IMG/VR virus record: IMGVR_UViG_2718217863_000002
DNA from: a virus
Lineage: Duplodnaviria; Heunggongvirae; Uroviricota; Caudoviricetes
Direction: 5' to 3' (one strand)
Length of the DNA stretch: 41,341 nt
Made by a program: the position numbers and the translations under genes
The notes under the pieces: model-generated
The model's input: only the letters and a program-made list of their open reading frames with translations
The model's database searches: none
What the model was told of the DNA's origin: nothing
Part shown: positions 11,107 to 33,234 of the stretch, piece by piece
Numbering within the stretch: the first letter of the stretch is position 1
Layout: each line of letters starts with the position of its first letter

Positions 11107-11134
11107 AGAAAAGTTGAAAGGGATTTTTTTGGTA

Positions 11135-14100
11135 TTAAGCAGCGTCGCCGGGGTATGTGGCGTCGTCGTACTGGTAGAACGATTCGAGGTATTCTTTTGC
11201 GGTGACCTGGCAGGTTCCGTCAGACTGCGGGGCGATCTCCTCTACAATGGCGTCGTAGACGTGGCGCGTTGAGCCGCAGAACACCAGGCGGATCGGCTCG
11301 ATGGTTGCCGACGACAGGTCAACCCGCATGGGATCATCAAACTCGCTCAGGTGCGGGACTGACAGCTGAAAATCACCCACCCGGCTCGCCACCATCAGCC
11401 CGGATGCAGAGCCATCCTGATAGCGGATTAGCGCGCGGGGATTTTCGAAAGACCAGTCCAGCGGCTCCGTAACGGTGAACGTTGTCACGCCACCAGCCGT
11501 TGTCATCGCCTCCACCAGACAGGAAATTGTGTTGTTACCCGGAATATCATCCGTGAGCACAATGCGATCGCCCGTGTTGTAGCACAGCGCGTCCAGCTCG
11601 GTAGTGGTCTGGAACGTCACCCGCTGCTGCAGGTATTTCATCAGGCGACGCATGCCGATCTGGTAGGCGTGATCCTGATTCAGTACCCCATCGAGTTTGT
11701 AGTTCTCGATTTTCACCGGCGTGGGATTATCAGGCGTCCGGCATTTAACGGTCTCCTCCGCCCAGGTAGTCCCGTTGATGTATGTCACGTCGACGCCATC
11801 AAAATCATCGTCGGACGGTACGGTAAATCCGCTCTGCAGCTCCTCCACCATCTCATGCGGAGTGATCACGCCAGTCCAGGGCTTAATCCCCTCACGGTTG
11901 ACCGTCGCCAGGCCATCACTCAGCAGAAAACGTGACTTCCCGGCATTGGCTATCTTCTGCAGCATTTCCAGCGCTGAGATACTGTCGCCCGTGGCGAAAT
12001 CAAAATTTTCGCCCCGTGGCGTCCAGTACGCGGATTCCAGCGCGTTGATGGTGTCGACGTCCATCTCCAGCCCCAGCGAGTTCCCGACATGCAGCAGCGC
12101 CCCCGAAATGGTTCTGGCGGTTCCTGAGTCGTAGGCCCGCGTGGCCACAACGTTTACGCGGCGGTCCGACTGCGCCGCCAGCTTCCCACCCGTCTCAACG
12201 GTCACCGCCATCAGCGACACGCCGGGATAGGATGAAGGGCGCGTCAGCAGTCGCCCGCGCAGTGCCTGCCAGTACATCGAATCCCTGGCGTTGTTTGAGC
12301 CCTGCTCATTGCGCCGACGGCAGCGAACCTCTACCAGTCCCGGAGAACTGAGGGTGATCCGCTCAGTGAAACCTAACCCGTTGACGTTTTTCAGCGCATA
12401 CTCGCCCTGGTGACTCACCCACCCCGATCCGGAACCGTAGACGCGATACTGTATCTCCCACTCAACGTGGCGGATCCGTTTTTTGCCCTTACTGTCAAAG
12501 CCGCAAATACCGTTCGGGAAAGAGAAATTCACCTCGAACATATCGACGGTCTCATTTTCAGGGCAAACCAGGAACGGCCCCAGCCAGCTCAGCGTGTCGT
12601 TAAGACCAGTGGCCTCATAGTCGATCATCGTCCGGGCGGTGAATCCCGGCCATGACTCATCAACGGCACCGTTAACCAGGCGCGCCACCGTCGCCGTTGT
12701 GCCGTCGGTCGAGACAATGCGGTACTCATTCCCGCGGTGAGCAAGTGAAAGCCGTTGCACCCCCTCCGGCATGCCGGAAAAGGCCGTTCCCGTGGCGCTG
12801 TTATAGGCAAGCGTCACATTCGCCGTTACCGCCGGGCTGCCGCCGGTTGATGCCGTGCCGGAGGTGTAAACCGGGGCATCACCGAAAACAGCTGCAGGCA
12901 GCGAAGAGGACGTGATCTCCCCACCCGCGAACGGACTGGCCGACTCGGTTATCAGTACGGTGCCGCCGTTGTCCTGCGCAACCAGGCCGGCGCCAGTGAG
13001 TCCCTCGGTGATGGCCGCCAGCAGTCCCGACATCGAGACGTAGTTAGCCACCAGCGACACCGGGTAGGTAACTCCCTGCCAGGTGATCGTGAACGTGCTG
13101 GAGCTGGTCGAAAAATCGTAGGTGGTCGGGGCCGCACTGGCCTGGACTTTTGCCACACTCCCCCCGGTGCCGGGCACTGCAGCCTGACCGGGGGTATATG
13201 ACGCGATAAACAGATCGTAATCGACAGAGTTAAACCCCAGCGTCACCGGCATTCCAACCACCGGCGCGATCTCCGTCAGCAGCGGGCTTGCGATAACGCT
13301 GTATCCGGCCGCCGTGGTGATCTGGTAGTTCGCCTGGGCTTTCAGTTCGACCACGGCGCCAGCGACCCAGCTGGGCGGCAGTGAGTTATCGTTCTCGTCA
13401 TTATCGTCATCATCATCCGTATCCAGCCCGGTAAACGTTACGCTCGAACCGGATACGGTCATGCTGTCTGCGATAATATCGTCGGCATCCGGCGACGTCT
13501 GGGCCATATCCAGCCCGGTACCGGATGATGTCCCTCCGACCTCAGTACTATTGACCCAGTTTTCACTGCGCTCATCGCCGGAAACGTCCGCGCCTGGTGG
13601 AAAATAGGTGATGTTGAAACCCGGCAGCGTTGAAGCTGGCGTACTGCCTACCCTGATATCGCCAGTGGTATAAATCAGTTCACCGACACCGAGACACAGC
13701 AGCATCTGGACGCGCATTTTCGTAGGATCGGCGGCATCGAACCGGGTAACGGGCTGGACCACATAATCCGGGTAGATACGCACCCGGCCAAACACCTCAC
13801 GAATGGCATCACCGAGTTTTGCGGTGTTGGCCCGCGCCGGGTTCAGGTCGAGACTCCGCCCTGTGGATGAGGTATAGCCGCCCGTATCGATGCGGCTCAT
13901 CAAAACAAGCGAATAGGCTGCAGCGGCAACGGAGATACCGACGCCGATCCACGCGATTGTGGCGGCCTCCAGCCCGAAGGGGACCGGATAAAGCCGTACA
14001 TCACTATCAGGGCGGATCACACAGGTAGCCCACTCGCCTGGCGGAATTGACTGACCCTCAACCTCAACGGTCAGCGGTGGGACATCCCGATCGGTATAGT

Positions 14101-14203
14101 TTTCAACATTTTCCACCAGCCAGGTGCGGATACTGGTTACACCATGCTCATGCGTTTCGAGTGGTTCACCGGGAAGCCGGGACGGGTAGAAACGAATGGT
14201 CAT
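11135..14203 (-). CDS. host-specificity / tail-tip protein (J-like)
   Basis: 1022 aa, directly after distal tail genes and before the fibre; size and position typical of a central tail fibre protein. Confidence 0.7.
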   Translation of the reverse strand: MTIRFYPSRLPGEPLETHEHGVTSIRTWLVENVENYTDRDVPPLTVEVEGQSIPPGEWATCVIRPDSDVRLYPVPFGLEAATIAWIGVGISVAAAAYSLVLMSRIDTGGYTSSTGRSLDLNPARANTAKLGDAIREVFGRVRIYPDYVVQPVTRFDAADPTKMRVQMLLCLGVGELIYTTGDIRVGSTPASTLPGFNITYFPPGADVSGDERSENWVNSTEVGGTSSGTGLDMAQTSPDADDIIADSMTVSGSSVTFTGLDTDDDDDNDENDNSLPPSWVAGAVVELKAQANYQITTAAGYSVIASPLLTEIAPVVGMPVTLGFNSVDYDLFIASYTPGQAAVPGTGGSVAKVQASAAPTTYDFSTSSSTFTITWQGVTYPVSLVANYVSMSGLLAAITEGLTGAGLVAQDNGGTVLITESASPFAGGEITSSSLPAAVFGDAPVYTSGTASTGGSPAVTANVTLAYNSATGTAFSGMPEGVQRLSLAHRGNEYRIVSTDGTTATVARLVNGAVDESWPGFTARTMIDYEATGLNDTLSWLGPFLVCPENETVDMFEVNFSFPNGICGFDSKGKKRIRHVEWEIQYRVYGSGSGWVSHQGEYALKNVNGLGFTERITLSSPGLVEVRCRRRNEQGSNNARDSMYWQALRGRLLTRPSSYPGVSLMAVTVETGGKLAAQSDRRVNVVATRAYDSGTARTISGALLHVGNSLGLEMDVDTINALESAYWTPRGENFDFATGDSISALEMLQKIANAGKSRFLLSDGLATVNREGIKPWTGVITPHEMVEELQSGFTVPSDDDFDGVDVTYINGTTWAEETVKCRTPDNPTPVKIENYKLDGVLNQDHAYQIGMRRLMKYLQQRVTFQTTTELDALCYNTGDRIVLTDDIPGNNTISCLVEAMTTAGGVTTFTVTEPLDWSFENPRALIRYQDGSASGLMVASRVGDFQLSVPHLSEFDDPMRVDLSSATIEPIRLVFCGSTRHVYDAIVEEIAPQSDGTCQVTAKEYLESFYQYDDATYPGDAA

Positions 14204-14580
14204 CGCCAGAACTCCACTTTGACAAATCGCCGCTTAAACCGCGGCAACGGCAGAAAGGTGACGTTCGTTCCCGGGTTGCATTCCGCCACATGCAGCAGGC
14301 CACCGATACTGACGACAATCCCCACATGGGTGACGGTCGACCCGGAATAACAGGCCACCCCGGCCCCTTCGCAGGGTTCGCAGCGCTCAAGGGTAAGCAT
14401 CATCCGGCGCGCTTCCCGGTCGAGTCCGCCGTCGTCTTTGGTGACCCCGGCAAAATCAGGCCAGAGAGGCATGCACAAATCGCGGCGTATCTCGTTCACA
14501 ATGCCGAAGCAGTCGAGCTGCGGATATACGCGCCCGCCCTTCAGCCAGGTGACTGAACGGTATTTATCAGGAATAAACAT
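14200..14580 (-). CDS. tail-associated NlpC/P60-like peptidase
   Basis: 126 aa with Cys and His candidates (CYSGSTVTHVG, HVAEC); start overlaps upstream gene; position equals lambda K. Confidence 0.5.
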   Translation of the reverse strand: MFIPDKYRSVTWLKGGRVYPQLDCFGIVNEIRRDLCMPLWPDFAGVTKDDGGLDREARRMMLTLERCEPCEGAGVACYSGSTVTHVGIVVSIGGLLHVAECNPGTNVTFLPLPRFKRRFVKVEFWR

Positions 14581-14590
14581 GATGGATTCC

Positions 14591-15073
14591 TTAGCTGATA
14601 TAACGCAGTCCGGGGAAGACAGGGAGCGTGTAGCGGTAACGTGGCCAGGCGGTATCGAGGATATTCATGTAGCCCGCAGTGATCTGCACCTCTGTCGCCG
14701 TCCAGTAACCAGACTTGATTTTCAGCGTATAAGGCACTGCCGCAGGCACTGCTAAATCCGTGGAGATATAGCTCCGGTATGTCAGCGATGCAGGCAATCT
14801 GTTAGCCAGGGCATTGCGGATCGCCGTTGACACAACACCATCGATATTGCACAGGGCAAATTTCAAATCTTGCGTGCCGTCCGCATTACGCGCCGGCAGC
14901 GCAATGTCTATCGCACAGGCGGTAAACGTTACGGTATCGCCGTTCTCCGTCGTTGCCGTAATATCCTCGTAGCCCTGACACAGGTAGTGAATATCTGAGC
15001 CAACGGTGATCTGCAGCGTTTCAATGATCACCTCCGGGCCGCTGCTGGCGTAGAGGCGTTTAATCTGCGTCAT
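14591..15073 (-). CDS. minor/distal tail protein
   Basis: 160 aa, translationally coupled within the tail operon. Confidence 0.5.
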   Translation of the reverse strand: MTQIKRLYASSGPEVIIETLQITVGSDIHYLCQGYEDITATTENGDTVTFTACAIDIALPARNADGTQDLKFALCNIDGVVSTAIRNALANRLPASLTYRSYISTDLAVPAAVPYTLKIKSGYWTATEVQITAGYMNILDTAWPRYRYTLPVFPGLRYIS

Positions 15074-15539
15074 GATTCGGCCACTCCTTATTCAGGGCGA
15101 TATCAAGCAACGAACTTCCGACTATCCATTCCGGGTAATGCCCCCATCCAGACGGCGGCAATGGGCGCTCCCAGAGTTCTACTGGCGCGGTATATCTCCA
15201 GTAAAGTCCGCCTTCTGGCGTGGGGCCTTTATAAATATCCGTGAAACGACACACGTAATTTTTCAGCCCTACAGGCGTTAATAACGGTATGTTGAACCAC
15301 GCCGCCCCATCTGATAACTCATCCCGAAACCACGCCTCAAAAGCCTGCGCCTGGGCATCAGAAAAAATCCAGGCCAGATCTGTTTGGGTTGGTGTCGAGG
15401 TGTAGGCACGCCGCTGCCGTGCCCGGCCAGTTACCATCTGAGTCCGTTTCAGAGGAGATACAGGAGTTAAACCAAAACTCTCTTTAAGCGGACCAGGCAG
15501 GTAAGCGGAGGGGTAATAAAGCGTTGTGGTGATAGCCAT
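15060..15539 (-). CDS. minor/distal tail protein
   Basis: 159 aa, immediately downstream of the tape measure gene. Confidence 0.5.
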   Translation of the reverse strand: MAITTTLYYPSAYLPGPLKESFGLTPVSPLKRTQMVTGRARQRRAYTSTPTQTDLAWIFSDAQAQAFEAWFRDELSDGAAWFNIPLLTPVGLKNYVCRFTDIYKGPTPEGGLYWRYTAPVELWERPLPPSGWGHYPEWIVGSSLLDIALNKEWPNHDAD

Positions 15540-17974
15540 CAGCTAATTTTCCTCCCCGAGGTAGTTTTCCCCATCAAGGCCTTATGCAAATCACCCTGAC
15601 CGCTTGCGACTGAATTAACCGCCTTCCGGTATCCCCTTTCTGCCCCCTCATCTGCAGCTTTACGGACCAGCGCCAACGTTGCATCGGAAGGGTTACCATT
15701 GATGGGGATATTGATTGTGGGCGAATAAATCGCGCCGCCACCTGTTGACTGGTTTGCAACTCGATCCAGAGTGGCATCCAGTTTTGCGCTGGTTTTAGCT
15801 GTCGTAACGCGCTCACCTTTCTGCAGGAGCCAGGTTCCTGTTTCGGGCACAGAGTCGATACCGTCGTGAGCCTGTCCATGAAGCGCCGATCCGATAGCAG
15901 TCATGAACACGCCAGCAGCAGCTGCCGCAGCTATTGCTTGGGTTGACGCCACCACGGGACCTACATAGGGAACACCAATCCAGGCAGTGAAGGCACTCAA
16001 CGCTGCCATTGCTACCTGAGCAGCCGCATATTGCAGTAATGCAGCCCCAACAGATTGAATGAATGTCGCCGCAAAGTCCTGAGCGTTTAATTTACCGGTT
16101 TCCGCCCAGTTAATTACCATATCAGTTAAACTACTAAACGTTTGTGTACCTACTTGCTGCATATTTGCATATAGGTTTGAATATGCAGCAGCTTGATCTG
16201 ATATTCCAGAAACGAAACCTGCGACACCATCGTTTTGTAACTCTTCTAACTTCTTATAGTGTTCCTCTTGAATTCTTAGCCTTTCATTCAGCGAGTTTTG
16301 AAGCGCTTCTTTCTTTTTATCGTATAGACTTTTTTCAATATCTCCAGACTGAAATTGATTTAAAAGCTCTTCCTGTCGAGAAGCAAAATCTTGCTGAATA
16401 TCATTATTATCCTGCATGCGTGAACGTTCACGACTACCAGAATAACGGCCAACTATTTGGTTTTCAAACCCTTGGCGGACTAATTTATTCTGTCTTTCGA
16501 GATCTGAAACATATTCAGCTACTTTCGCATTTTCCTGATTAAGCCGTAACTCTTCCTTCTTGGAATCAAGGATTTTAGCCGCAGTTCGAAGTTGTTCCTT
16601 CTGCCCTTCAGATAATTTTTTCAGGTTTCCGCTGGTTATATCAAAATTAATCTTCTCCAGCTCGGTTACTTCTGCAGTTTTTTTACCGGTTGTTTCAATG
16701 AGGGCGGCCTGCTTCTGTAAATCAAGAAGCCTACTTTTGAAAGCGTTGTCAGTCGGATTGCTTTTTGGTTTTATTTTGGGCTGATTCTGGTTAGACTCCC
16801 CTTTTCCCAACGAAAAATCATTATCCTTAGCCGTATCAATGCCAAGATCAGAAAGAAGAGATGTGAGTCCTTTCGCTCCTCTATCTACCTGCTCCGGGGT
16901 CATTCTTGACTTTATCGCGCGAAGAAATTGAAGACGTTTAGTTAAAAAGTCTAATTCGTCTTTTTGTTCCTTACTTTGATTCCCTCGTTTATTAAGGAAT
17001 TCAATGCGCTGTGAAATATCACTTTCATCAGCAGCATTATAATTACCTGATACAGCACCTATACGAGAGCGGGTATAAGTAGCAATGGCCCCCAAGCCAC
17101 CAGCAATACGCCCCACAACCCCGGCAAGGCTTATGGCTTCACCAACCAAGTCTGATAGCCCCTGAAGAACAGCAGGATCGGTGAAGACGTCACGAATGTC
17201 ATCAAGCCCATCCTGCAATGGCGTAAGGTCAACCTTAGCCAGCCCCGAAGCCATTTCCATTTTAAGACCGCGGGCGCTAGTCTCTATATCCTGAAAGAAC
17301 TGATTAACCTTAACAAGGTTATCAATATCTTCTTGCGGTGGTGCGACACCAAAATCTTTTGATAGCTGGATAAACTGTTTCAGCTTCTCGTTGTTGTTGT
17401 CGAACAACGGCAGCATTTTTGACAGGTCATTACCCAGACTTTCGAGAATATTAGTTTTCCCGGCCTGAGTGGGTATTTTCTGTAATGCTTCACTGATTGC
17501 CATCAGCTGCTTATCTGGGGATTGCTGAGCCAGCTTCTGAGCTGAAAGCCCCAAAGTATCCAGCGCCTGAGCAGCCTCACCTGATTTATTCAGGACCGCA
17601 TCGCCGACCTTATCATTAATGTCTTTGAAAATATCGGCTATGTTGTCACCGGTTAAACCGGCTTGTTCAGCAGCATATTGCCAGGATAACAAATCCTGGG
17701 TGGACATTTTAAGAGATTTTGCCCAGCGATCAACTTCTGTAACCTGCTGTGCAGTATTTTTAACAATGGCTAGCCCAGCAGCGCCAATACCAACAGCTGC
17801 GGTAGCCGCTGCAGCCCCCACAGCAATGATTGAAGAACTTACCTCTTTAGCGTCTTTTTTTACCTGGTCGCGCCACTTCTGAGAAGATCTTTCGGCTTTA
17901 TCCATGCCCTGAACAAATCCACCTACTTTAGCGATCAGGTCGATTGTTAACGTACCGAGGGACTTGCCAGACAT
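15539..17974 (-). CDS. tail tape measure protein
   Basis: 811 aa; Ala/Gly-rich hydrophobic N-terminal segment, long coiled-coil-like middle, C-terminal hydrophobic block. Confidence 0.85.
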   Translation of the reverse strand: MSGKSLGTLTIDLIAKVGGFVQGMDKAERSSQKWRDQVKKDAKEVSSSIIAVGAAAATAAVGIGAAGLAIVKNTAQQVTEVDRWAKSLKMSTQDLLSWQYAAEQAGLTGDNIADIFKDINDKVGDAVLNKSGEAAQALDTLGLSAQKLAQQSPDKQLMAISEALQKIPTQAGKTNILESLGNDLSKMLPLFDNNNEKLKQFIQLSKDFGVAPPQEDIDNLVKVNQFFQDIETSARGLKMEMASGLAKVDLTPLQDGLDDIRDVFTDPAVLQGLSDLVGEAISLAGVVGRIAGGLGAIATYTRSRIGAVSGNYNAADESDISQRIEFLNKRGNQSKEQKDELDFLTKRLQFLRAIKSRMTPEQVDRGAKGLTSLLSDLGIDTAKDNDFSLGKGESNQNQPKIKPKSNPTDNAFKSRLLDLQKQAALIETTGKKTAEVTELEKINFDITSGNLKKLSEGQKEQLRTAAKILDSKKEELRLNQENAKVAEYVSDLERQNKLVRQGFENQIVGRYSGSRERSRMQDNNDIQQDFASRQEELLNQFQSGDIEKSLYDKKKEALQNSLNERLRIQEEHYKKLEELQNDGVAGFVSGISDQAAAYSNLYANMQQVGTQTFSSLTDMVINWAETGKLNAQDFAATFIQSVGAALLQYAAAQVAMAALSAFTAWIGVPYVGPVVASTQAIAAAAAAGVFMTAIGSALHGQAHDGIDSVPETGTWLLQKGERVTTAKTSAKLDATLDRVANQSTGGGAIYSPTINIPINGNPSDATLALVRKAADEGAERGYRKAVNSVASGQGDLHKALMGKTTSGRKIS

Positions 17975-17992
17975 TTAATTTCTCCAGGCAAC

Positions 17993-18020
17993 AAAAAAAC
18001 CCCGCCGAAGCGAGGTTTTG
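17993..18020 (-). terminator. rho-independent terminator after the lipoprotein gene
   Basis: ACCCCGC-cgaa-GCGAGGT hairpin with T-run on the minus strand, between the lipoprotein stop and the tape measure start. Confidence 0.45.
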
Positions 18021-18043
18021 GTTTGTTTATATATTGGTTAAAA

Positions 18044-18436
18044 TTATTTAACTTTTCCCGTATAGCCCGCATTCACCTGAGCATCAGCGGAGTCTATTTT
18101 CCCATGGGAGTAAAAAATAGTATGTGCTTCAGCACCTGTATATCCACCATAGGAGTTTTTAGCATTAATGGTTATCGGAATAAGCCATCCATATCGCATA
18201 GCCCCACCTGATTCAGCTAAAATGCCATCCTTAAACCATGCTTTCTCTGGTGTACCAAAAGTATAATGAGCAGAATATGGGTCTTTTAACATCCTTCCCC
18301 ACCAATCCTTTATCTGCTGCTGATAGTTATCCGGTAACACCCCATAATCAGCCGAGTGCAACTGAACTTGGCTAGGTGGATTTGCGGCGCACGCAGTTAA
18401 CAATAATGCAAATAACATAATCGCTATTTTCTTCAT
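18044..18436 (-). CDS. lipoprotein (insert between tail chaperone and tape measure genes)
   Basis: Signal peptide MKKIAIMLFALLLTAC with lipobox LLTAC; 130 aa; lower GC than neighbours; own terminator. Confidence 0.6.
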   Translation of the reverse strand: MKKIAIMLFALLLTACAANPPSQVQLHSADYGVLPDNYQQQIKDWWGRMLKDPYSAHYTFGTPEKAWFKDGILAESGGAMRYGWLIPITINAKNSYGGYTGAEAHTIFYSHGKIDSADAQVNAGYTGKVK

Positions 18437-18499
18437 ATCCCTATCCCATTGGTTATTGTTGTACTGATGATATTGATACCTACAGCGATTTAAAAGTTA

Positions 18500-18814
18500 T
18501 CAATGCCAACTTTTCATAGCTTCTTCAAGAGATAATGGCGCTTCGTTGATGTGCGGTGCAAAGTCACTAACCTTGAACGGAGGCGTGTTCTTTGCCTTAT
18601 TGATGTTAGCCAGGACAGAAGCCACCAGCGAAGCCCCCCACTCGGTACGCATCATAACGTTAAGCTGACCATACTTATTACGGTACTTTACCCACACCTG
18701 AAACTCACGAAGGCTCATTCGCTCCTGAGCCTCCGCTATGGTCCGCCCACCGATGCCGTTCATGACTAACTCACACCAGAACTCGTCTTCTCCTGTGAGT
18801 TCGTAGTCTTTCCC
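18500..18814 (-). CDS. tail assembly chaperone GT extension (-1 frame)
   Basis: ORF 18500-18763 lies in the -1 frame relative to G; the -1 frame is open from the slippery site through its ATG. Confidence 0.55.
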   Translation of the reverse strand, partial: GKDYELTGEDEFWCELVMNGIGGRTIAEAQERMSLREFQVWVKYRNKYGQLNVMMRTEWGASLVASVLANINKAKNTPPFKVSDFAPHINEAPLSLEEAMKSWH

Positions 18815-19149
18815 AGATCGTTGACTTCCTGGATGACGGCCAGCAAAGCAATAACGATCGGCCCATCGAGCGCGCCACGATCTGGGGTAGCAGTTCCAAG
18901 AATGTCAGCCGCGGTAAACACTGGGGCGCCGTCCTGATCGCAAATATGCGCCGCAATGCGCTCAGCAATCGGGTCCGATTTCCCGTTATACGCCAGCAGT
19001 TCAGCTTTAGTGGTGTGGTAGCCCATCGGGCGCACATAGACGGTTGCGATATGCTCTTTCCTGTCACGGCCTTTCCACTTAATTTCTTTTTTCACGGGAC
19101 GCCCGGTAAAGGCACCGGTTTCTTTTAACGTATCGAGAGTAAGTTGCAT
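18766..19149 (-). CDS. tail assembly chaperone (lambda G-like)
   Basis: 127 aa, between major tail and tape measure genes; carries the slippery heptamer near its 3' end. Confidence 0.6.
   Translation of the reverse strand: MQLTLDTLKETGAFTGRPVKKEIKWKGRDRKEHIATVYVRPMGYHTTKAELLAYNGKSDPIAERIAAHICDQDGAPVFTAADILGTATPDRGALDGPIVIALLAVIQEVNDLGKTTNSQEKTSSGVS
18808..18814 (-). other. programmed -1 frameshift slippery heptamer G_GGA_AAG
   Basis: Minus-strand GGGAAAG with GGA and AAG in the zero frame of G (frame checked from coordinates). Confidence 0.55.
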
Positions 19150-19160
19150 TTCAGCTCCTG

Positions 19161-19185
19161 AATTGAAAAGCCCGGATAACCGGGC
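19161..19185 (-). terminator. terminator/attenuator after the major tail gene
   Basis: GCCCGG-ttat-CCGGGC hairpin then TTTTCAATT on the minus strand. Confidence 0.45.
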
Positions 19186-19192
19186 ATATTAA

Positions 19193-19684
19193 TTACGCTG
19201 CGGCCTTCGGCACCCATACGGAAGAGCCAGACCGCTGGATCGTGGCGGAGGTCGTCACAACAGCGTTACCCTGAAAATCAAACGGGAAGTCGGAAACGTA
19301 ACCCTGGAAAATGAACCAGGTGCGATCCGATGGCAGCACCAGGCCATCAACAGCATCCTCAGCGCCAGGAGCGGCGGCTGTCGGGATACTGGTTCCATCT
19401 GACCAGCCAACCGCAAAAGTTAACGGCGTCTGATCATTCGCTTCAGCGAGACCATGCAACATAATGTGGCTGGCGTTCGTCGGATCAGCGTTAAGCCCGA
19501 CGGTTGCGGCCGCAGGCGTTTTAAGCCCCTTTTTGTAGGTTCTTGAATCCCGCTCACTCAGACAGGTATCTTCAATCTGATCGGCAGGGTTGCCGCCGGG
19601 GTTGAAACTGGTGATGCATTCAACCTCGCTGACCACGCCAGACTTGAGCACAAAAAATTGCGTGCCTTGCGTTAATACAGACAT
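19193..19684 (-). CDS. major tail protein
   Basis: ATG at 19684 with GGAGA RBS ([12 protein letters not shown]...); 163 aa; track ORF starts at an upstream GTG. Confidence 0.7.
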
Positions 19685-19699
19685 GTTTTGTCTCCATAA

Positions 19700-19723
19700 A
19701 AGAAAAACCCGCACAAGGCGGGT
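19700..19723 (-). terminator. hairpin plus T-run immediately upstream of the major tail gene
   Basis: ACCCGC-cttgt-GCGGGT then TTTTTCTTTT on the minus strand. Confidence 0.35.
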
Positions 19724-19740
19724 CAGTTTGGGGTTGTTGG

Positions 19741-20106
19741 TTATCTGGGCGTTATCCAGTCAACATCGAAGGAATAGCGGTATCGCATTGTTTCAGGATC
19801 ACGGCTTTGTTCACCCCATCGGGTGATATAGGCCTTGCCCTCAATCGCGTCGCGTAAAGCACGGGCAACGGCGATCACGTCGGTGTCAGTATCACCATAG
19901 ACATCAACCTGCAGAGAATAGTGATCTGCATCTGGCCGCTGGTTTAGATAATTTTCAGGGTTGCCACCTATGTTTTGCCAGACTGCATAGGGGTAAACGA
20001 TATTATCGTTCTGCATACCGAACGGATAAAGCCGCACGGGATTAGAGCCTAACAAATCCCTGACTGCCTGGCTGGCTGCGCAAACTGCAAATATTGGAGC
20101 AATCAT
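19741..20106 (-). CDS. tail completion / tail terminator protein
   Basis: 121 aa; position between the gp10-like gene and the major tail gene. Confidence 0.45.
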
Positions 20107-20642
20107 ACCGGCGTTCCTTTTTTAGCCGCCCGTCGCACAGCGCGATCAATGGACTTTTCCAGCTCCGCTGCGAAAATATTAATTACGTCGGTATCAACAC
20201 CATTGATCGCCGGTCGCAAAACAGGCTTTGCTGCTGCGTGCTCTGTGCCGAACTCCAGGAATCGCCAGTACCAGGTATCCCCGCCGGGATTACCTTTATC
20301 TCCGGCAGTGTTAAAGCTTTTACCCACCCTGCCTTTTCGGACGTTGGCCTTTGTATTGGCGTATTGCCTGGCGCCGCCCATCACCCCGACACGAAACGTT
20401 GGATCGCCGGTTCTGCGAAATGCCTTGCTGCTGAAACTGACCACAATGTTTTTGTAGATAGCCTCTTTGGTGAGAGGGTCATCAACCCGCGCGGCATTAT
20501 TGCGCGCTCTGTCCCTGATCACGTTTGCCGCTTTACGCAGCGCTGCACGACCGGATTTATCGCGAGTGACCTGTGAGACGGCATCCAGTTTCCCCAGGAC
20601 GGAATCGAGCCCAGTCAGGTTTACTTCTACGCCATCAGCCAT
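20103..20642 (-). CDS. HK97 gp10-family head-tail joining protein
   Basis: 179 aa; GRAALRKAANVIRDRAR resembles gp10-family proteins. Confidence 0.6.
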   Translation of the reverse strand: MADGVEVNLTGLDSVLGKLDAVSQVTRDKSGRAALRKAANVIRDRARNNAARVDDPLTKEAIYKNIVVSFSSKAFRRTGDPTFRVGVMGGARQYANTKANVRKGRVGKSFNTAGDKGNPGGDTWYWRFLEFGTEHAAAKPVLRPAINGVDTDVINIFAAELEKSIDRAVRRAAKKGTPV

Positions 20643-20967
20643 CGTTAGCCCCCTCTGAACATGGCAGTGTCAGGTATTCCCTGCCGCTCCGGGGGTCAGG
20701 TAAAACGCCCTCAATGTTGTAGATGCGGCCACGAAACAGGATCCGATGTTTGCGGGTAACACCCTCACGGTAACGAATCGTTATCCGGGTGGTAACTTCG
20801 CCCTGAGAGGCCTGGGCGGCGATAAACTCACGTGCGGATAAAGCAGCGACTTCGGCCCAAAGGGTTGCGACATCGCGCCAGGTATTAATCACGGCTCCCG
20901 TTGTCGGGTTCTGTTCTTTTACCGGCTCCTGCAGGGTTATCCTGTGACGCAATTTCCCGGCCTGCAT
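20635..20967 (-). CDS. head closure / head-tail adaptor protein
   Basis: 110 aa; MQAGKLRHRITLQEP ... RITIRYREGV ... RILFRGRIYNIEGV pattern typical of this family. Confidence 0.6.
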   Translation of the reverse strand: MQAGKLRHRITLQEPVKEQNPTTGAVINTWRDVATLWAEVAALSAREFIAAQASQGEVTTRITIRYREGVTRKHRILFRGRIYNIEGVLPDPRSGREYLTLPCSEGANDG

Positions 20968-20968
20968 A

Positions 20969-21181
20969 TCACCCCCTCGTTCTTTGACTCAGGTACACAG
21001 GGCGATCATCACCCAGTGAAGTGATATCAATATCGTCATCTGCAGCCAGCGACTGGATAATTACATCGGACAGGGCGACGTTAGATTCAGCCAGGCGGTT
21101 TATCGCTTCCGTCTGCTCTCTCTGTGCTGCTGTTTGTTCTCTCAGCGCTGCTATCAGCGCGTTTACCAGTTGCTCGTTCAT
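20969..21181 (-). CDS. hypothetical small protein
   Basis: ORF track, 70 aa, within the head-tail joining cluster. Confidence 0.4.
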   Translation of the reverse strand: MNEQLVNALIAALREQTAAQREQTEAINRLAESNVALSDVIIQSLAADDDIDITSLGDDRPVYLSQRTRG

Positions 21182-21241
21182 AGGCTATTTTCGTCCACTT
21201 TTTTAACCATTCACGCCGTTTAGCACATCCAGAGCAGCCCA

Positions 21242-21634
21242 TTAATTCCACCTCCGGTGCCGAATCAGAAGCGCTTCAACACCCAGCGGAACTTCCGAAA
21301 GGTTCTGCGCTACCGCTTCGCGGTTCGCATACCAGTGTCCAATCAGCAAAAGCATTGCCGCCCAGATGCCGGAAGTAAAAATAATCTCACGGGGCTGAGT
21401 TTCCCCTTCCACTGGCGGCGTTAATGTTTCGACCAGCGCCCCGTCGCAGAACCGCTCAACATAATCGACGGAGGCCGACGCATAGGCAGAAATAAGCGTA
21501 TCTTCGTCGTCACCATCAACCTTCAGATGCGCCTTTATCTGCGCCAGCTGTTCCTCGCTTATTTCCACCTTTACCCCCTGGTTTGGCTTTAGCAGGCTCC
21601 GCAGAACCAGAGTCTGTTGCCTTTTCCGGCTCAA
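21242..21634 (-). CDS. head-tail connector protein (gp6-like); true start probably internal
   Basis: EISEEQLAQIKAHLKVDGDDEDTLISAYASA is typical of gp6-like connectors. Confidence 0.55.
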   Translation of the reverse strand: MSRKRQQTLVLRSLLKPNQGVKVEISEEQLAQIKAHLKVDGDDEDTLISAYASASVDYVERFCDGALVETLTPPVEGETQPREIIFTSGIWAAMLLLIGHWYANREAVAQNLSEVPLGVEALLIRHRRWN

Positions 21635-21758
21635 CCGCCTCGGCCAGATGCAGTTTCACCAGTACTTCGCCGATTCCTTTATGCACCTCGCGGATTTCCC
21701 CCTGAGATACCGTACCCAGGTGATAATGCGAGAACATACGGAGAGCTTTAATTTTCAT
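21516..21758 (-). CDS. possible small protein after the capsid gene (overlaps the connector ORF)
   Basis: ATG at 21758 (MKIKALRMF...), low-complexity C-terminus, no clear RBS. Confidence 0.25.
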   Translation of the reverse strand: MKIKALRMFSHYHLGTVSQGEIREVHKGIGEVLVKLHLAEAVEPEKATDSGSAEPAKAKPGGKGGNKRGTAGADKGASEG

Positions 21759-21795
21759 CGCATTTACGCGGCCATTGCTGGCCGCGCCCTTTTTG

Positions 21796-22959
21796 TTATG
21801 CACCAGTGCTGACAGCAATATCACCCGTCACAATCGCTGCCGGGCGATAGTGGGCCAGCGCCAGGCGCTCTTCGCAAAGGATGGTCAGCATGTTTTTAAC
21901 GAAGTTATCGCGGTCCTGGTTGCTGATCTCGATGGTGGCATCCATGCGATCCCAAACCTGCGACGCCAGGCCAAACGCGCCAACGGTGAATTTGCCTGCC
22001 GTCTGCGCCGTGGTCGACACCACCGGAAGCCCCCAAAGCACTTTCGAGGCAAACGCCTGCGGGCCACCGAGAATGTAATTGCCGTTAGCGTCCTTCAGCA
22101 GGGCAATACGGTGCCAGTCCGCCGGGTTCAGAATGATGCCGTCTGCTTCGAACTCACTCAGCGATACCTGATAGATGGCGTGTGCCAGAACATCAGCGCC
22201 AGTATCTCCGGTTGCGTTGAGTGTGGTTTCGTAGTCGTTCGCTACTACGTTGAGCCCCTGCAGGTTATCGCCGGTACCGTCCCCGTTCAGCATCTGGTTC
22301 TCTTCCACCAGTGCCAGTCCGTACATCATGCGGGAATTGATGTAAGACTCGAGCGCCGGGGCATCATCCATGATCTGGCGCGATGCCTGGATCCAGTGGG
22401 CGATAGTTTTCACGTTCGCCGTTTCTTTGGTGAAGGTGATATTACTTTCCGGCTTGAGGGTACCTTCTGCCACTGGTGCTGCAGCGTTGGTAAACACGTT
22501 TTCGCGCACGTATTCCAGCGCGTTACTGGTGATACGCCCCTGTGCCAGCAAGTCACGCACAGTCAGACGGCGAAGGCCCGGCATAAGAATACCCGGCAGC
22601 TGCTGCGGCTGGACCAGGGCGCCTGCCGACGCTGCGCCGGAACCAATCGCTTTATCAAAGCTGGTGACTTTCGCTTTGGTACGCGAGCCGTCCCAGCCCT
22701 TCATCAGATCTTCAGATACGCGCTGAGCAAATGACTTCTGCGCAGTCTGATCAGGAGAGTTCCCGGCCAGTTTCTGCTCAAGATCGAACAGGCGGGCACC
22801 GGTGGCTTTCAGTTCTTCCTGTGCTTTCGTCAGATCGGTCTGCATCTGCTTGTTGATTTCACCGGTCTGGTTGATGGATTTACGCTGTTCTTCGATAAGC
22901 TCCTTTACTTCTTTTTGGGAGTTTTCGATAGCTTTTTCCAGTACAGATAATTCAGACAT
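21796..22959 (-). CDS. major capsid protein, HK97 family
   Basis: 387 aa; N-terminal coiled-coil delta-like region followed by the capsid body, as in HK97 gp5. Confidence 0.85.
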   Translation of the reverse strand: MSELSVLEKAIENSQKEVKELIEEQRKSINQTGEINKQMQTDLTKAQEELKATGARLFDLEQKLAGNSPDQTAQKSFAQRVSEDLMKGWDGSRTKAKVTSFDKAIGSGAASAGALVQPQQLPGILMPGLRRLTVRDLLAQGRITSNALEYVRENVFTNAAAPVAEGTLKPESNITFTKETANVKTIAHWIQASRQIMDDAPALESYINSRMMYGLALVEENQMLNGDGTGDNLQGLNVVANDYETTLNATGDTGADVLAHAIYQVSLSEFEADGIILNPADWHRIALLKDANGNYILGGPQAFASKVLWGLPVVSTTAQTAGKFTVGAFGLASQVWDRMDATIEISNQDRDNFVKNMLTILCEERLALAHYRPAAIVTGDIAVSTGA

Positions 22960-22970
22960 GTGTTACTCCG

Positions 22971-23651
22971 TTAAGGTGTCCGCAGGTTAGCGGCAAATGA
23001 GTTAATGCGCTGTGCCAGCGCGTCAATGTCGTCGCTACCGAACTCGCTTCGGCCTGCAGACTTAACACGGGCGATAAATGCCTGTGCTTCAGAACGCGAA
23101 AGCCCGACTGAATCCCTCAGCCAGGCCTCCGCATCGCGAATAGATTTGATACTGTCGATGCTCTTCATAGCCGTTACGCCAGCGAGCTCGTTGGCCGGGA
23201 AAGTACAGACGCTAATTTCCCGCAGGTAAGAGATGTTTTTGAAGATGAGCCCTGACGTGCCAACGGTGTAATCATCAGGCCCAACGGAAAACCCCACTGA
23301 CATCCCTTCAACCGTGCCATGCTGCATGGCAGCTTTCAGGTCTTCGGCCAGGCTAAGCCCTGGAGTAAGTTGACCACGGACAAATAGCCCCTTGTCATCT
23401 TCATGCATTGCATCCCATTTACCGACCGGGATAGCACGTGTCTGGTGGTTAAAGAACATGGCCACCTTGCGACTCTGGTTAGCAATCACACCAGCGAAAG
23501 CACCTGGCAAAATAATGTCGCCATCGGCGTCGGTGTTATTAAAAACCGAGGCATACCCTTCAAATGTTCCCTTACTGCCGTCGCCGATGAACTTGATTTC
23601 TGTCTGGTCGAAAGCCAGCGTCTTCTGAATGTCAGGCATCATAGCCCCCAT
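22971..23651 (-). CDS. prohead protease (HK97 family)
   Basis: 226 aa, between portal and capsid genes. Confidence 0.8.
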   Translation of the reverse strand: MGAMMPDIQKTLAFDQTEIKFIGDGSKGTFEGYASVFNNTDADGDIILPGAFAGVIANQSRKVAMFFNHQTRAIPVGKWDAMHEDDKGLFVRGQLTPGLSLAEDLKAAMQHGTVEGMSVGFSVGPDDYTVGTSGLIFKNISYLREISVCTFPANELAGVTAMKSIDSIKSIRDAEAWLRDSVGLSRSEAQAFIARVKSAGRSEFGSDDIDALAQRINSFAANLRTP

Positions 23652-23656
23652 AAAAA

Positions 23657-24934
23657 TTAAGCCCCGGCATTGCGGGGCTCTTTGTTTGTTCCGAGATCGG
23701 TAATGGGCACGTTCTGCGACTGCCGTGTCGCCACATCACCTCCGGGCAGCGGCGGCAGGTTATCGAGCCTTCGAACCTCGTTAACGGTCCGAATCCCGGT
23801 ATTGACCATGATTTGCATAAATGATGCCCGGCTTGTTGAATCACCGCGCAACAGCCCGTCGAGGTTATGCTCGGCGTGAATGATGCCCTGTTCTGACTCT
23901 TTGACCAGCCAGCGCTCAATGCTGTACTCCCACCGATCAAGGTAGGGTTTGAGGGTATACTGGAGAAAGCCTAGGTTTTGCTGTTCAATCCCCGATCCCC
24001 AGGAGGTGGTTTTGTCCACATCGCCGACCAGATGTGGAGGCACGCCGTAAAATCGCGCCAGTTCGGCGACCTGAAATTTACGCGCAGACAGAATTTCTGA
24101 ATCCTGAGGCGAAACGCCGATAGGTTGCGTGGTGAAGCCGCTCTCAAGGATCCAAAGCCGCTTTTTGACCGGGCCACCAGCAATCTCCTTAAAGTTTTCC
24201 TCCAACTGCCCGCGCTGCTCTTTCGTCAGCACCTTGCCGTCAGTCATCAGGATCTGCGGAGACTTCGCACCATTGGCGAAAAATTCACGCTGGTTATCTT
24301 CCATCGCTATGGCCACACCAGCAGACTTCGCACTGAACGCCAACGGCGAAAGACCAGTCAGCCCATTGAAGCCAAACCCTTTGAGATGAAAAATTTCTTT
24401 CTGTGAAAAGTCGGCGTATTCAGTGTCCCGTCGGTAGCGATAGATAATATTTTTACCGTTATCGCTGAGCCGAACTTCCATATTGGCGCTCATCAGTGGA
24501 ACCATGCTAATCACGTCACCAACACTGTTTCGCTCAACATGTGCATAGGCGTTGCCGTAGGCACATAGTTGCATAGTCATTGCTTCGCGAAACTCAAGAG
24601 CGGTCATGAAGTTGTTGGGACGGAATCTCAGCAGCTTCGCCAGGGGGTGACTGTTGTCCACTTTCGTGCGCTGATCATTTTTGGTCTGATAAACATCGAG
24701 TGGTAAAGATGCTGTTACGGTGGAGATTAACCTGATGCAGGCCCATACCGTACTGATTTGCATATTACGCTCATCAGTCACAACAGAATCACCAACCACA
24801 CCGTGCGCTGACGTACCCGCCATTTGCGAGCCCTTATCGGGTGTCACCAGGCGGCCGCCGGTCAGGATAGAGGCCATGCGCGCCCAGAATGGCGATCGCG
24901 TCCGCAGGTCAATGCTGTAATCGGTATCTGCCAT
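23657..24934 (-). CDS. portal protein
   Basis: 425 aa, between large terminase and protease. Confidence 0.85.
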   Translation of the reverse strand: MADTDYSIDLRTRSPFWARMASILTGGRLVTPDKGSQMAGTSAHGVVGDSVVTDERNMQISTVWACIRLISTVTASLPLDVYQTKNDQRTKVDNSHPLAKLLRFRPNNFMTALEFREAMTMQLCAYGNAYAHVERNSVGDVISMVPLMSANMEVRLSDNGKNIIYRYRRDTEYADFSQKEIFHLKGFGFNGLTGLSPLAFSAKSAGVAIAMEDNQREFFANGAKSPQILMTDGKVLTKEQRGQLEENFKEIAGGPVKKRLWILESGFTTQPIGVSPQDSEILSARKFQVAELARFYGVPPHLVGDVDKTTSWGSGIEQQNLGFLQYTLKPYLDRWEYSIERWLVKESEQGIIHAEHNLDGLLRGDSTSRASFMQIMVNTGIRTVNEVRRLDNLPPLPGGDVATRQSQNVPITDLGTNKEPRNAGA

Positions 24935-24936
24935 TT

Positions 24937-26469
24937 TTACACGCTCAAAAAGTTGTAAATGAAATCATTAACGTCACCCTGCTCCTCTACCTCGTCACTA
25001 GTCTGCGCGCCAATAGACATCGCCAGCGCTACCATGCCGTCGATACGTCCGCTCGACTTACCTTTCACAAACTTGCGGTTACCGGCAGGGTCAGTGATTA
25101 CCGTGGCGTTTTTGGCGCACATTTCGAGGATCGGATGATTGCCGTGCTTCAGCTGCGCACCGAGCAGTTTGGCTTCCAGCTCCCTGAGAGCAGGCGACAT
25201 GGAAACAAACCCCTGACCGAACTCTACGAATCGTTCGAGCTCCACATCTGTGAAACCAGCATCGATGAGATGCGGGCGAAGGAAGCGCATGTTATAGCGG
25301 TCAAACGCCAGCGCCCTGACGTTACAGAGATCAAAAACGCGCCGCAGCTCCCTCGCGATAAATCCATACTCGATAGCCTTACCAGGTGTCGTGTTTAGCC
25401 AGCCCTGCTTCGCCCATATGTCATAAGGCACACGATCGTTACGCGCCTTATCTGCCAGCCCTTCCTCCGGTAGCCAGAATTTACAGTGCACATCGCCCTG
25501 CGTGGTGTTCAGCACCAGTGCGGTCAGGTCTGACACGCTGGAAAGATCGAGCCCGCCCCATACGGTAGCCCCCGCAAGTTCGCCGGGTTCCTCCTTGTTC
25601 ATATGCCATACACTCTGGCTAACGAACGGGCTTTTCGCTTCAACCCTGCGGTTTAAAACAAGGTTCTCAAACTCTGCCTGGCGAGACGGCAGGCGTTTCG
25701 CACTGGCGGCCATATCCAGCACTTCTTTCTGGTTCATGAACACATCGAAGGCCGGGTTTGCCAGCCTGATTGCCTCGACAGAGAAAGGATCGATATCTTC
25801 CGGCGCGGTCTGAAGCCGGACCACCGTCCGGGGATCGGCTCCGGTCAGGCCATCATCAATCAGCAGGCTAAGCAGGTCGCTCGCATCGGGCGCCTGGGTG
25901 CTGATGATTATCGAAATAGGGTTATCCTGTGCAGCGGTGGCGGTTTCCAGCGCTTCATAAAGCGGATCTCGCGGACCACGCACCTGGCCCAGTTCGTCGT
26001 GTGCGACAAATCGCGGCGAGAAACCGTAGGCCGTGGTAGCTTCGGCACTCAGTGCGCGGTAATAAGAACCCAGCTCAGGGCAGTGGATTTCTTTAGCTGA
26101 ATCCTTGATCGCAACGTACTGCATTAGTACCGGGTTCATCCGGCACATCTTCGAGGCCAGGTTAAACAGAATGGCCGCCTGGTCGCGTGAGCGTGCCGCA
26201 GAATACAGCTGCGAGTTCGGTGCAGCCTCGGGCCCTATCAGGTAGAGCAGCATCAGCATGGCGGTTTCCACCGTTTTGGCGTTTTTTCGCCCGCGACTGA
26301 TGATTGCGCGACGTGTACCATGCTTGTTGTCGAAAATGGCTCTGAAGTCATCCTTCATGAACTCAGCCATTTTCAGCGGCTGGCCGACAAACTTACCTTC
26401 GGGAATATAAATATTTCTTTCGCACCAGAGGATATTCCTCTCGGCTCTTGTCAGAGTTTTTTTAGCCAT
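24937..26469 (-). CDS. terL: terminase large subunit
   Basis: 510 aa; N-terminal ATPase region and C-terminal nuclease-like region; follows the small subunit. Confidence 0.85.
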   Translation of the reverse strand: MAKKTLTRAERNILWCERNIYIPEGKFVGQPLKMAEFMKDDFRAIFDNKHGTRRAIISRGRKNAKTVETAMLMLLYLIGPEAAPNSQLYSAARSRDQAAILFNLASKMCRMNPVLMQYVAIKDSAKEIHCPELGSYYRALSAEATTAYGFSPRFVAHDELGQVRGPRDPLYEALETATAAQDNPISIIISTQAPDASDLLSLLIDDGLTGADPRTVVRLQTAPEDIDPFSVEAIRLANPAFDVFMNQKEVLDMAASAKRLPSRQAEFENLVLNRRVEAKSPFVSQSVWHMNKEEPGELAGATVWGGLDLSSVSDLTALVLNTTQGDVHCKFWLPEEGLADKARNDRVPYDIWAKQGWLNTTPGKAIEYGFIARELRRVFDLCNVRALAFDRYNMRFLRPHLIDAGFTDVELERFVEFGQGFVSMSPALRELEAKLLGAQLKHGNHPILEMCAKNATVITDPAGNRKFVKGKSSGRIDGMVALAMSIGAQTSDEVEEQGDVNDFIYNFLSV

Positions 26470-26478
26470 CGAAGAGCC

Positions 26479-26913
26479 TTATTCAATTTCCCAGGGTTTT
26501 TTCTCCCGCGGCAGATTTTTGTTGGCGCGTCCTACTGTTTTAGGATCAGCAGTCGCCTGCCGGGTGATACGCAGTCGCGTTGCCAGTGAAGACGCAGACC
26601 GTACTTCACGTTCGCGCATCGTGAGCAATTTATCGTAGCGCTTCAGCCCATCATCCCGAGCCAGCCACTCCAGCTCAAACTCCTCGATCTGAGTGGTTAA
26701 CAGTCTCGCCTGCACCACATGCCGACAGTACATTTCCATCATGTCGCGATGTGTTTCAGTAAATGAGCTGGCCGGGTTATCGTTAACCAGTCTGATCCAA
26801 ACGTTTATCTCTGGATCGCTAAGGTGAAACGAGGGCTGCAGCCTGCTTTCAGCCAGAGCCGGAAGCGACACAGCCGTCGTCGCGGCAAGAGATTTTCTGC
26901 CTCGCTGTGCCAT
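26479..26913 (-). CDS. terS: terminase small subunit (P27-like)
   Basis: 144 aa, directly upstream of the large subunit and downstream of the HNH gene. Confidence 0.7.
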   Translation of the reverse strand: MAQRGRKSLAATTAVSLPALAESRLQPSFHLSDPEINVWIRLVNDNPASSFTETHRDMMEMYCRHVVQARLLTTQIEEFELEWLARDDGLKRYDKLLTMREREVRSASSLATRLRITRQATADPKTVGRANKNLPREKKPWEIE

Positions 26914-27034
26914 CGCTTTTTTCCTTTTTTTCTGGACGTTTTTGAAAAGAAAACTGGGGGCGCGGTCTTTTTACGATTGCGGCCAGAGTTTTACCCCTCC
27001 CCCCATCCTGTCGGGCTGATAATGAGAAAAGCTA

Positions 27035-27244
27035 TCATTTCTCGATGATCCGCAGGTTTTCACGGGGAGGACTGGGTAACACCAGGCGCTCACCGACACC
27101 GACAGACATTGTCAGGATGATCGTTGGTAGCGTCTCTTTTGCTGTATGACTGAAGGATATGGCGGATGCAGAAAGAAAGCTCATACCATCAATGCTCAGC
27201 TCCACCAGCTTGCCATCCTGGTATTCAATCTTCAGGTCTTGCAT
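27035..27244 (-). CDS. hypothetical small protein
   Basis: ORF track, 69 aa, between HNH and terS. Confidence 0.3.
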   Translation of the reverse strand: MQDLKIEYQDGKLVELSIDGMSFLSASAISFSHTAKETLPTIILTMSVGVGERLVLPSPPRENLRIIEK

Positions 27245-27256
27245 TGCGTGCTCCTG

Positions 27257-27553: not shown

Positions 27554-27556
27554 TCC

Positions 27557-27586
27557 AATAAAAAAGCCACCGTTTAAAAGGTGGCT
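27557..27586 (-). terminator. rho-independent terminator ending the AT-rich module
   Basis: AGCCACC-ttttaaac-GGTGGCT then TTTTTATT on the minus strand, 22 nt after the stop at 27608. Confidence 0.6.
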
Positions 27587-27607
27587 TTCATAAATTACAA
27601 AGGGATT

Positions 27608-33221: not shown

Positions 33222-33234
33222 TATGCGTTCTCCA

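Follow-up and report, generated by a model that had tools for sequence, protein, structure and literature searches.

The tail tube (major tail) protein gene of an Escherichia coli prophage lies, within the late operon, between two stem-loops that are each followed by a U-rich run on the transcribed strand. The window analyzed here, IMG/VR virus record IMGVR_UViG_2718217863_000002, is a stretch of 41,341 nucleotides (nt); its 701-base segment 19100-19800, which covers the gene and both elements, is found in 28 of 5426 complete E. coli genomes, with 100% identity in at least 8; strains 5CRE51 and MRSN346595 carry identical copies. By anatomy both elements qualify as intrinsic terminators, and both are oriented in the direction of late transcription (- strand). 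The upstream element, ahead of the tube gene, is also found before the tube genes of distantly related tail modules, and appears from sequence comparison to be under selection as a directional RNA structure. We favor, at a rough probability of 0.55, the reading that the two elements are conditional stops: intrinsic terminators in an operon governed by a Q-type antiterminator, largely overridden by Q and persisting as RNA hairpins in the message that is read through them.

The gap before the tube gene is 56 nt long and holds a stem-loop, a U-run and a GGAG (coordinates are collected in the table below). The stem-loop begins 16 nt past the stop codon of the tail terminator gene; its stem has 7 pairs, 5 of them G-C, its loop has 5 nt, and the U-rich tract that abuts the stem on the transcribed strand reads UUUUUCUUUUAU. 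The GGAG, as Shine-Dalgarno sequence, occupies 19695..19692 and is separated from the tube ATG at 19684 by a 7-nt spacer. The centroid fold of the hairpin is worth about -11 kcal/mol (z -1.9; 9 of 200 shuffles are as stable), and its terminator d-score runs from +8 to +20, varying with the stem end that is assumed. (A technical note: the d-score formula is that of d'Aubenton-Carafa 1990 and the energies are those of ViennaRNA; the scores are to be read qualitatively only.) The gap after the tube gene, 43 nt long, holds the downstream stem-loop (6 G-C pairs, a loop of 4), its tail and an AGGAG. The downstream segment folds at -14.8 kcal/mol (z -3.0; 2 of 200 shuffles are as stable) and scores +14; its U-tract, UUUUCAAUUC, is weaker than the upstream U-run.

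The original prediction, made from the letters of this DNA, had put hairpin plus T-run elements on both sides of the major tail protein gene, and both its coordinates and its description hold when the sense (-) strand is scanned and folded; "terminator-like" is also apt, since the elements have intrinsic-terminator anatomy on the sense strand and positive d-scores. The gene was correctly named and correctly placed in the late operon: its product matches PF16460 (Phage_TTP_11, E 7e-65) and phrog_158, and has 71% identity with HK022 gp12 and 56% with the major tail protein of D3. What the prediction made of the elements, a device for producing tube protein in excess, is taken up below.

The evidence that can be had from this one sequence is modest. 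A consensus scan of 12000..28000 finds 25 terminator-like sites, both elements among them, against 17.0 +/- 4.7 in shuffles. Two other gaps of the late operon (21165-21250 and 18430-18505) fold no better than shuffles, so that hairpins are not general to every gap of the operon. Negative d-scores go to the post-capsid hairpin, to the one where portal and protease genes meet and to the one ahead of the tail fiber gene, none of which has a proper sense-strand U-run; the hairpin after the Q gene and that at the likely end of the operon score positive, as the two elements do.

Comparison with relatives says more about the upstream element. A close set of 80 IMG/VR loci, whose tube proteins are 98-100% identical, is too similar for covariation; in it both stems are unchanged, and the differences are confined to the loop, the length of the T-run and the flanks. 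A divergent set was assembled from annotated phages and from IMG/VR scans with the tube proteins of HK022, D3, Vibrio phage H20 and Acinetobacter phage fLi-Aba03, giving a family of 357 loci, 240 of them with distinct flanks, that fall into 40 clusters at 80% protein identity; a terminator-like site in these relatives is one that satisfies the scan tool's own definition. Such a site ends no more than 100 nt before the tube start codon in 215 of the 240 loci with distinct flanks, and a sense-strand hairpin with its U-run lies within 120 nt of that codon in 26 of the 40 clusters. When each cluster is counted once (40 representatives), the last 100 nt before the start contain 28 sense-strand sites, against about 1.9 expected from the density across loci; the antisense strand has 5 in the same bin, and no other bin within +/-3 kb has more than 6. 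The preference is for this junction and not for gene ends at large: 19 of 37 representatives have a site past the end of the open reading frame (ORF) that precedes the tube gene, against 16 of 279 for the ends of other long ORFs (Fisher p = 2e-11). Most clusters place the end of the hairpin 19-40 nt from the start codon.

The tail modules that share the site have tube proteins that are only 30-70% identical, and belong to phages of Escherichia, Klebsiella, Pseudomonas, Vibrio, Halomonas and Acinetobacter. The stems differ from clade to clade (CCGGC/GCCGG, CCCGC/GCGGG, GCACCC/GGGTGC, GCCCTC/GAGGGT, GCCTCTGC/GCAGGGGC, GCCAGAC/GTCTGGC and others), while within clades the loops vary freely; even among the Pseudomonas D3-like phages, 35 of 37 loci still have the U-run. 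When 43 distinct hairpins are aligned with MAFFT (that is, in an alignment not fitted to any structure), 80% of the pairing cells can pair, against 71.5% after shuffling, and the covariation score is 0.294, against 0.158 for the shuffled alignments, none of which (0 of 500) reaches it; slid controls score 0.04-0.11. Two stem pairs swap CG for GC in at least one third of the sequences. Compensatory combinations in the stems include CG 18 / GC 14 and GC 27 / CG 8 / UA 2.

Two further observations attach to the flanks of the upstream element. In many clusters, from different genera, the U-run is followed by (A/G)TGCC, as in TTTTTATGCC; a small upstream ORF starting from this ATG or GTG was considered and discarded, the frames relative to the tube gene being spread 7/4/2 and neither length nor sequence of the peptide being conserved. 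The 15-25 nt on the 5' side of the stem are C/A-rich and G-poor. This upstream flank holds no pairing partner for the 5' arm; the covariance models of Rfam 15 give no match at either hairpin at E <= 1, the only matches being sub-threshold ones on the terminator at 17994-18097. With neither a competing structure upstream nor an Rfam match, the two elements are not to be classed as attenuators or as riboswitch leaders. As to what is on record, the GenBank/RefSeq entries of HK022 and D3 have nothing but coding genes annotated at this junction, and a literature search that did not include the HK97/HK022 and D3 genome papers turned up no statement of a conserved, covarying site before the tube gene.

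The downstream element has a different history. Its stem is invariant in the window's clade and its U-rich tail differs in close relatives (TTTTCTATTC, TTTTCTGTTC, TTTTCTTTTC). HK022-like phages have another hairpin, AGGGCG-GCAA-CGCCCT, in its place, with a poor T-run (tail TATTAATCAG), and the element is absent where tube and chaperone genes are separated by 0-10 nt, as they are in D3, H20, QHHSV-1 and fLi-Aba03. Across the family terminator-like sites show no enrichment past the tube gene (4 of 38; background 5.7%; p = 0.28). Counting hairpins there without requiring a T-run gives too high a background in G+C-rich phages (0.26 per 60 nt), most of the hits lying inside the next gene, and that count was used for two enterobacterial clades only. 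On this comparison the downstream element is confined to the window's clade and a few others. The upstream element is old and widespread and the downstream one lineage-specific; in evolution the two do not make up a functional pair.

How does a terminator come to be kept in the middle of an operon whose distal genes have to be expressed? The upstream hairpin ends just 20 nt short of the tube ATG, and a promoter scan of that interval found no promoter-like site. A promoter of the tube gene's own was rejected on these two counts (the 20-nt space, and no site above the scan threshold); the best overlap that can be made out by eye, CTGACC-18-TTTTAT, agrees at 8 of 12 positions, and its start would fall inside the Shine-Dalgarno sequence. 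The notion that the tube gene is a moron was likewise set aside: it has no promoter-like site and is a core gene, present in all relatives. Lack of promoter room 3' of the upstream hairpin means that the tube gene and all later tail genes, essential ones among them, are transcribed through it, and that everything 3' of the tube gene is transcribed through both hairpins, beginning with the chaperone gene that follows. (Downstream of the tube gene the order is two tail assembly chaperone genes, an inserted lipoprotein-like gene and the tape measure gene.)

The prophage also has a Q-like late antiterminator gene. In addition to the matches given in the table, its product scores 39.3 bits against PF06530 (Phage_antitermQ; cut-off 26), and it is followed, on the same strand, by holin, endolysin, spanin, terminase, portal, protease, capsid, neck and tail genes; the late genes of the prophage are all on the - strand. 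Lambdoid Q proteins render RNA polymerase terminator-resistant across the whole late operon. Given obligatory read-through and a gene of the Q type, conditional stops are the simplest reading of the two elements. The proposal runs as follows: 1) polymerase unmodified by Q, whether from stray initiation inside the prophage or from read-in transcription, would be released at the hairpins; 2) Q-modified polymerase from the late promoter would pass them and go on to the tube, chaperone, tape measure and tip genes; 3) in the read-through message the hairpins would re-form and could block 3' exonucleases, the downstream one serving as a protected 3' end of the tube cistron after partial termination or after cleavage further downstream, the upstream one capping the head/neck message; 4) directly 3' of the upstream hairpin, which is stable, the ribosome binding site of the tube gene would be left in a U/A-rich leader free of structure. 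Expression of the tube gene would in this way be decoupled from that of its low-copy neighbors, mostly post-transcriptionally, through its own strong ribosome binding site.

Several points weigh against conditional stops. No promoter scores above the scan threshold after the Q gene; the late promoter has not been located, and the Q binding element was not sought. A Q-type gene was looked for in this prophage only. The upstream element is missing from 14 of the 40 clusters (most of these have gaps of 9-45 nt only) and so is not indispensable. And insulation from stray transcription, which would be a reason for having terminators somewhere in the operon, leaves it unexplained why the site before the tube gene should be conserved over those at other junctions.

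The last of these points is structural. In about 12 of the 26 clusters that have the element, its 3' arm and U-run have a second possible partner further 3', an A-run together with a repeat of the 5' arm; this partner sits in the 20-45 nt between the U-run and the start of the tube gene (AAGAAGCCCGC in D3; AAAAGGAGCGCUC in fLi-Aba03, where the Shine-Dalgarno sequence is covered), and the alternative hairpin is at least as stable as that of the terminator. Measured against composition-matched shuffles it is significant at the 5% level in 8 of 26 clusters, where about 1.3 are expected; the window's own clade falls short of significance. No other alternative pairing is seen in the relatives, and this one, formed from RNA made later than the U-run, cannot serve as an antiterminator. 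A plain terminator has no need of it, and it hints at an extra function at the level of RNA.

A different reading, which is possible, short of probable, and not exclusive of the first, makes the hairpins punctuation marks of the message: mRNA structures that bound a stable monocistronic tube message after endonucleolytic cutting, the downstream hairpin as a block to 3' exonuclease and the upstream one as a 5' hairpin, with the U-rich leader as an S1 or ribosome standby platform that raises translation. The short and constrained distance from hairpin to start codon would suit such a device, as would a U/A-rich spacer ahead of a good Shine-Dalgarno sequence. HK022-like phages keep a hairpin after the tube gene despite its poor T-run, and the hairpin after the capsid gene of the window has no sense-strand U-run at all; the alternative pairing, too, could furnish a 5'-terminal hairpin once the 5' arm had been removed, and differential stability is established for the messages of major subunits, papBA, the REP elements of malEFG and the 5' hairpin of ompA being examples. 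The difficulty is the U-run. Neither an exonuclease block nor a 5' cap requires one, yet a U-run adjoins the stem in all 26 clusters counted as bearing the element, hairpins that lack one being limited to a few of the other clusters, and it is the U-run that defines the asymmetry between sense and antisense strands. No processing sites are known.

The original prediction proposed instead an attenuation-based tuning by which tube protein is made in excess. Spelled out, this model has both hairpins leaky in lytic growth and the excess set by stepwise attenuation; we regard it as doubtful when taken as a whole. A siphophage virion contains roughly 200 copies of the tube protein and about 6-12 of neck proteins. 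Termination before the tube gene would lower the tube mRNA relative to that of the low-copy neck genes, which is the wrong direction, and attenuation at the upstream element is to be discounted, on the layout of the genes, as the cause of tube excess. The downstream half of the proposal fares better: a leaky stop after the tube gene is reasonable and has precedents, and either a leaky terminator or a stabilizer at that place would keep the tube message above those of the chaperone, tape measure and tip genes. The terminator anatomy is there, and the weaker U-run of the downstream element is what a leaky stop might be expected to have. Leaky phage terminators are known (more than 60% of the mapped sites of LUZ7 permit read-through, and T7 provides the precedent; PMC9163698), and an intrinsic termination site has been mapped after the tube gene of Listeria phage CKA15 (PMC12282133). 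The prophage nevertheless encodes a Q-type antiterminator, and a downstream site is not, as already described, enriched across the family; attenuation may be slight in lytic growth because Q-modified polymerase is expected to ignore the hairpins largely.

The alternative pairing invites a more elaborate and, we think, unlikely interpretation, in which the upstream element does more than terminate: it would be a cis-regulatory leader, conserved in the tail modules of siphophages, and a fold switch that is also a mark for module exchange. It would be built of three segments (the 5' arm; the 3' arm with the U-run; the downstream A-run with the copy of the 5' arm) and would, in many clades, switch between the terminator fold and a fold that hides the U-run, in some phages along with the Shine-Dalgarno sequence. 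Were this so, tube synthesis would be tied to the way the RNA is processed or to polymerase state, and the point at which heads and tails are exchanged would be marked.

The exchange itself can be seen in pairwise comparisons. Among 1560 pairs of loci with tube proteins at least 95% identical, 81 have tail terminator proteins less than 80% identical; conversely, 87 of 1092 pairs with near-identical tail terminator proteins have divergent tube proteins. For pairs with near-identical chaperones, a divergent tube protein is found in 0 of 1107. Two pairs (L102 and L106; L082 and L188) show what happens at the level of DNA: identity rises from about 55-65% in the tail terminator gene to 93-100% in the tube gene, and the jump, at positions -70 to -25 from the tube gene start in both pairs, is at the hairpin/U-run. 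It seems clear from such pairs that the pre-tube gap is, in some lineages, a mosaic joint between head/neck and tail. One may ask if that is what the hairpin is for, as a tolerated crossover point or as a short shared sequence that promotes crossing-over between divergent phages. The discordant pairs and the placement of the jump speak for it; a recombination patch, however, needs no compensatory stem, no strand-specific U-run and no freely varying loop, and junctions are to be expected in any non-coding gap. Nor is there a junction at this place between the window and HK022, whose neighboring proteins are all 54-88% identical. As the explanation of the element, this is unlikely.

That the two are chance inverted repeats without function is very improbable: pattern matches are admittedly common in these 16 kb and the upstream z-score is unimpressive, but in the 80 close relatives both stems are invariant where loops and tails vary, and for the upstream element chance is excluded by conserved position and covariation.

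The features are listed here, those of the tube gene and its two elements first.

Table 1. Features of the window that bear on the two elements, with positions counted from its first letter
Feature	Position	Strand	Basis and remarks
Upstream stem-loop, GACCCGC-CTTGT-GCGGGTT	19724..19706	-	scan; centroid fold
U-rich run TTTCTTTTAT, directly 3' of upstream stem	19705..19696	-	sequence
Tail tube (major tail) protein gene	19193..19684	-	163 aa; ATG at 19684
Downstream stem-loop, GCCCGG-TTAT-CCGGGC	19185..19170	-	scan; fold; 7 nt after tube stop codon
Short U-rich tail TTTTCAATTC	19169..19160	-	sequence; followed by AGGAG and chaperone ATG 19149
Tail terminator / tail completion gene, 5' neighbor of tube gene	19741..20106	-	phrog_78, E 2e-26; PF11367
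Tail assembly chaperone gene, 3' neighbor of tube gene	18766..19149	-	phrog_1749; PF16459
Q-like late antiterminator gene	32643..33401	-	phrog_753, E 1e-69; PF06576, 309 bits; PF06530
Hairpin + T-run, 52 nt after Q stop codon	32570..32591	-	scan; d-score +13.5
Stable hairpin, 10 nt after major capsid gene	21767..21786	-	scan; -19.1 kcal/mol, z -2.8; d-score -20
Hairpin + T-run after lipoprotein-like gene, before tape measure gene	17996..18019	-	scan; -20 kcal/mol, z -3.8
Strongest sense-strand terminator of the window, after last - strand tail fiber gene	8566..8590	-	scan; d-score +26.6
Relatives with alternative pairing: L081/L093-L172 (HK022-like), L082/L173-L252 (D3-like), L087, L092, L260, L262, L275, L327			

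Late transcription has other hairpins to contend with. The one just after the Q gene is in the position expected of a promoter-proximal late terminator, and would be the equivalent of tR'; it has T-runs on both strands and doubles as terminator of an ORF on the + strand, 31902..32567. That ORF (221 aa, without a PHROG match) is antisense and separates the Q gene from the holin genes, and presents late transcription with about 730 nt that have to be crossed. The strong terminator beyond the last - strand tail fiber gene is likely to be the end of the late operon. In the post-capsid hairpin the T-run is confined to the + strand: in the sense direction no role but that of an RNA structure is open to it, or else it may serve as a stop for antisense transcription. 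A further hairpin, 23659..23680, coincides in part with the final portal codons; its T-rich tail takes in the start codon of the prohead protease gene, and it gives a terminator-like match on both strands.

The hairpin ahead of the tape measure gene is a further site that late transcription has to pass. It follows a gene of lipoprotein-like character (18044..18436, - strand; 130 aa, with the signal peptide MKKIAIMLFALLLTAC; phrog_35631, no Pfam match), and homology to the closest phages, which have a different gene at this place, ends at about 18490-18510; gene and terminator (18019..17996) together look like a moron. The chaperone ORFs on its other side, 18500..18763 and 18766..19149 (- strand; G-like and T-like), are adjacent, and the corresponding gp13 and gp14 genes of HK022 overlap. 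The window also has two convergent tail fiber genes, 5580..7739 (+) and 8719..11058 (-), that share a 393-nt inverted repeat (85% complementary; 5532-5924 and 10714-11106) covering their leaders and 5' ends, with a hairpin, 11107..11080, at the outer end of one arm. A DNA invertase gene (4919..5488, - strand; phrog_125, E 2e-85) adjoins them, and the arrangement resembles the invertible host-range segments known as G in Mu and C in P1.

Elements of this general kind are already known: terminators are familiar both from phage late operons under antitermination and from positions behind the genes of major structural subunits. The window resembles the lambda Q/tR' system in its Q-like gene (PF06530), with a hairpin plus T-run behind it and genes for lysis and morphogenesis further on, all in one orientation; the Q protein of the present prophage differs in being mainly of the DUF1133 type. 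The U-V gap of lambda itself is very short and is not known to have such a hairpin. Among host defense systems that sense tail tubes, HigBAC is triggered by lambda gpV (bioRxiv 10.1101/2024.02.24.581848). T7 transcribes with its own polymerase and has no processive antiterminator; a terminator follows its gene 10 and none comparable precedes it. That terminator, T-phi, is inefficient and stands right after the major capsid gene, whose product is made in excess over those of distal genes (PMC9163698).

The late operons of phage L and P22 have a predicted Rho-independent terminator at the end of the procapsid module, in an operon with a single promoter and a Q-type antiterminator (PMC8022706). 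Like the upstream element here, it sits at a module boundary inside a late operon; the site described above lies instead between the tail terminator and tube genes of a siphophage tail module, and is conserved with covariation across genera. Casjens and co-workers remark that intra-operon terminators of lambdoid late operons are "not unique" and that their "roles are not known", and offer two options for phage L and P22: partial termination, or the stopping of transcription that is not antiterminated (PMC8022706). Past the tube gene, terminators have been predicted in SPP1 (11255-11304, just after gene 17.1*; PMC6316719) and, as a stem-loop plus T-run, in Cluster O mycobacteriophages (Corndog gene 49; PMC4351075), and one has been mapped experimentally in Listeria phage CKA15 (PMC12282133). 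These phages and their tube proteins are unrelated to the present prophage and its tube protein, and none of the three papers reports a conserved terminator before the tube gene.

On the bacterial side papBA, malEFG (REP) and the ompA 5' hairpin may, by analogy, be compared: a gene for a major subunit, bounded by hairpins, between low-copy genes. Morons combine a gene and a terminator inside a late operon, as the tube gene and its flanks do; unlike them the tube gene is a core gene without a promoter of its own. The element has practical uses, in annotation and in the engineering of prophages or tail-derived particles, where removing or retaining the hairpins may alter the yield of tube protein, and it is a well-defined object on which to test the silencing of stray lysogen transcription against the setting of expression ratios and against mRNA stability. 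What it adds to the known systems is a site before the tube gene that is kept across divergent tail modules of several bacterial genera, that evolves by compensatory change in its stem, and that coincides, in some lineages, with the place where heads and tails are exchanged.

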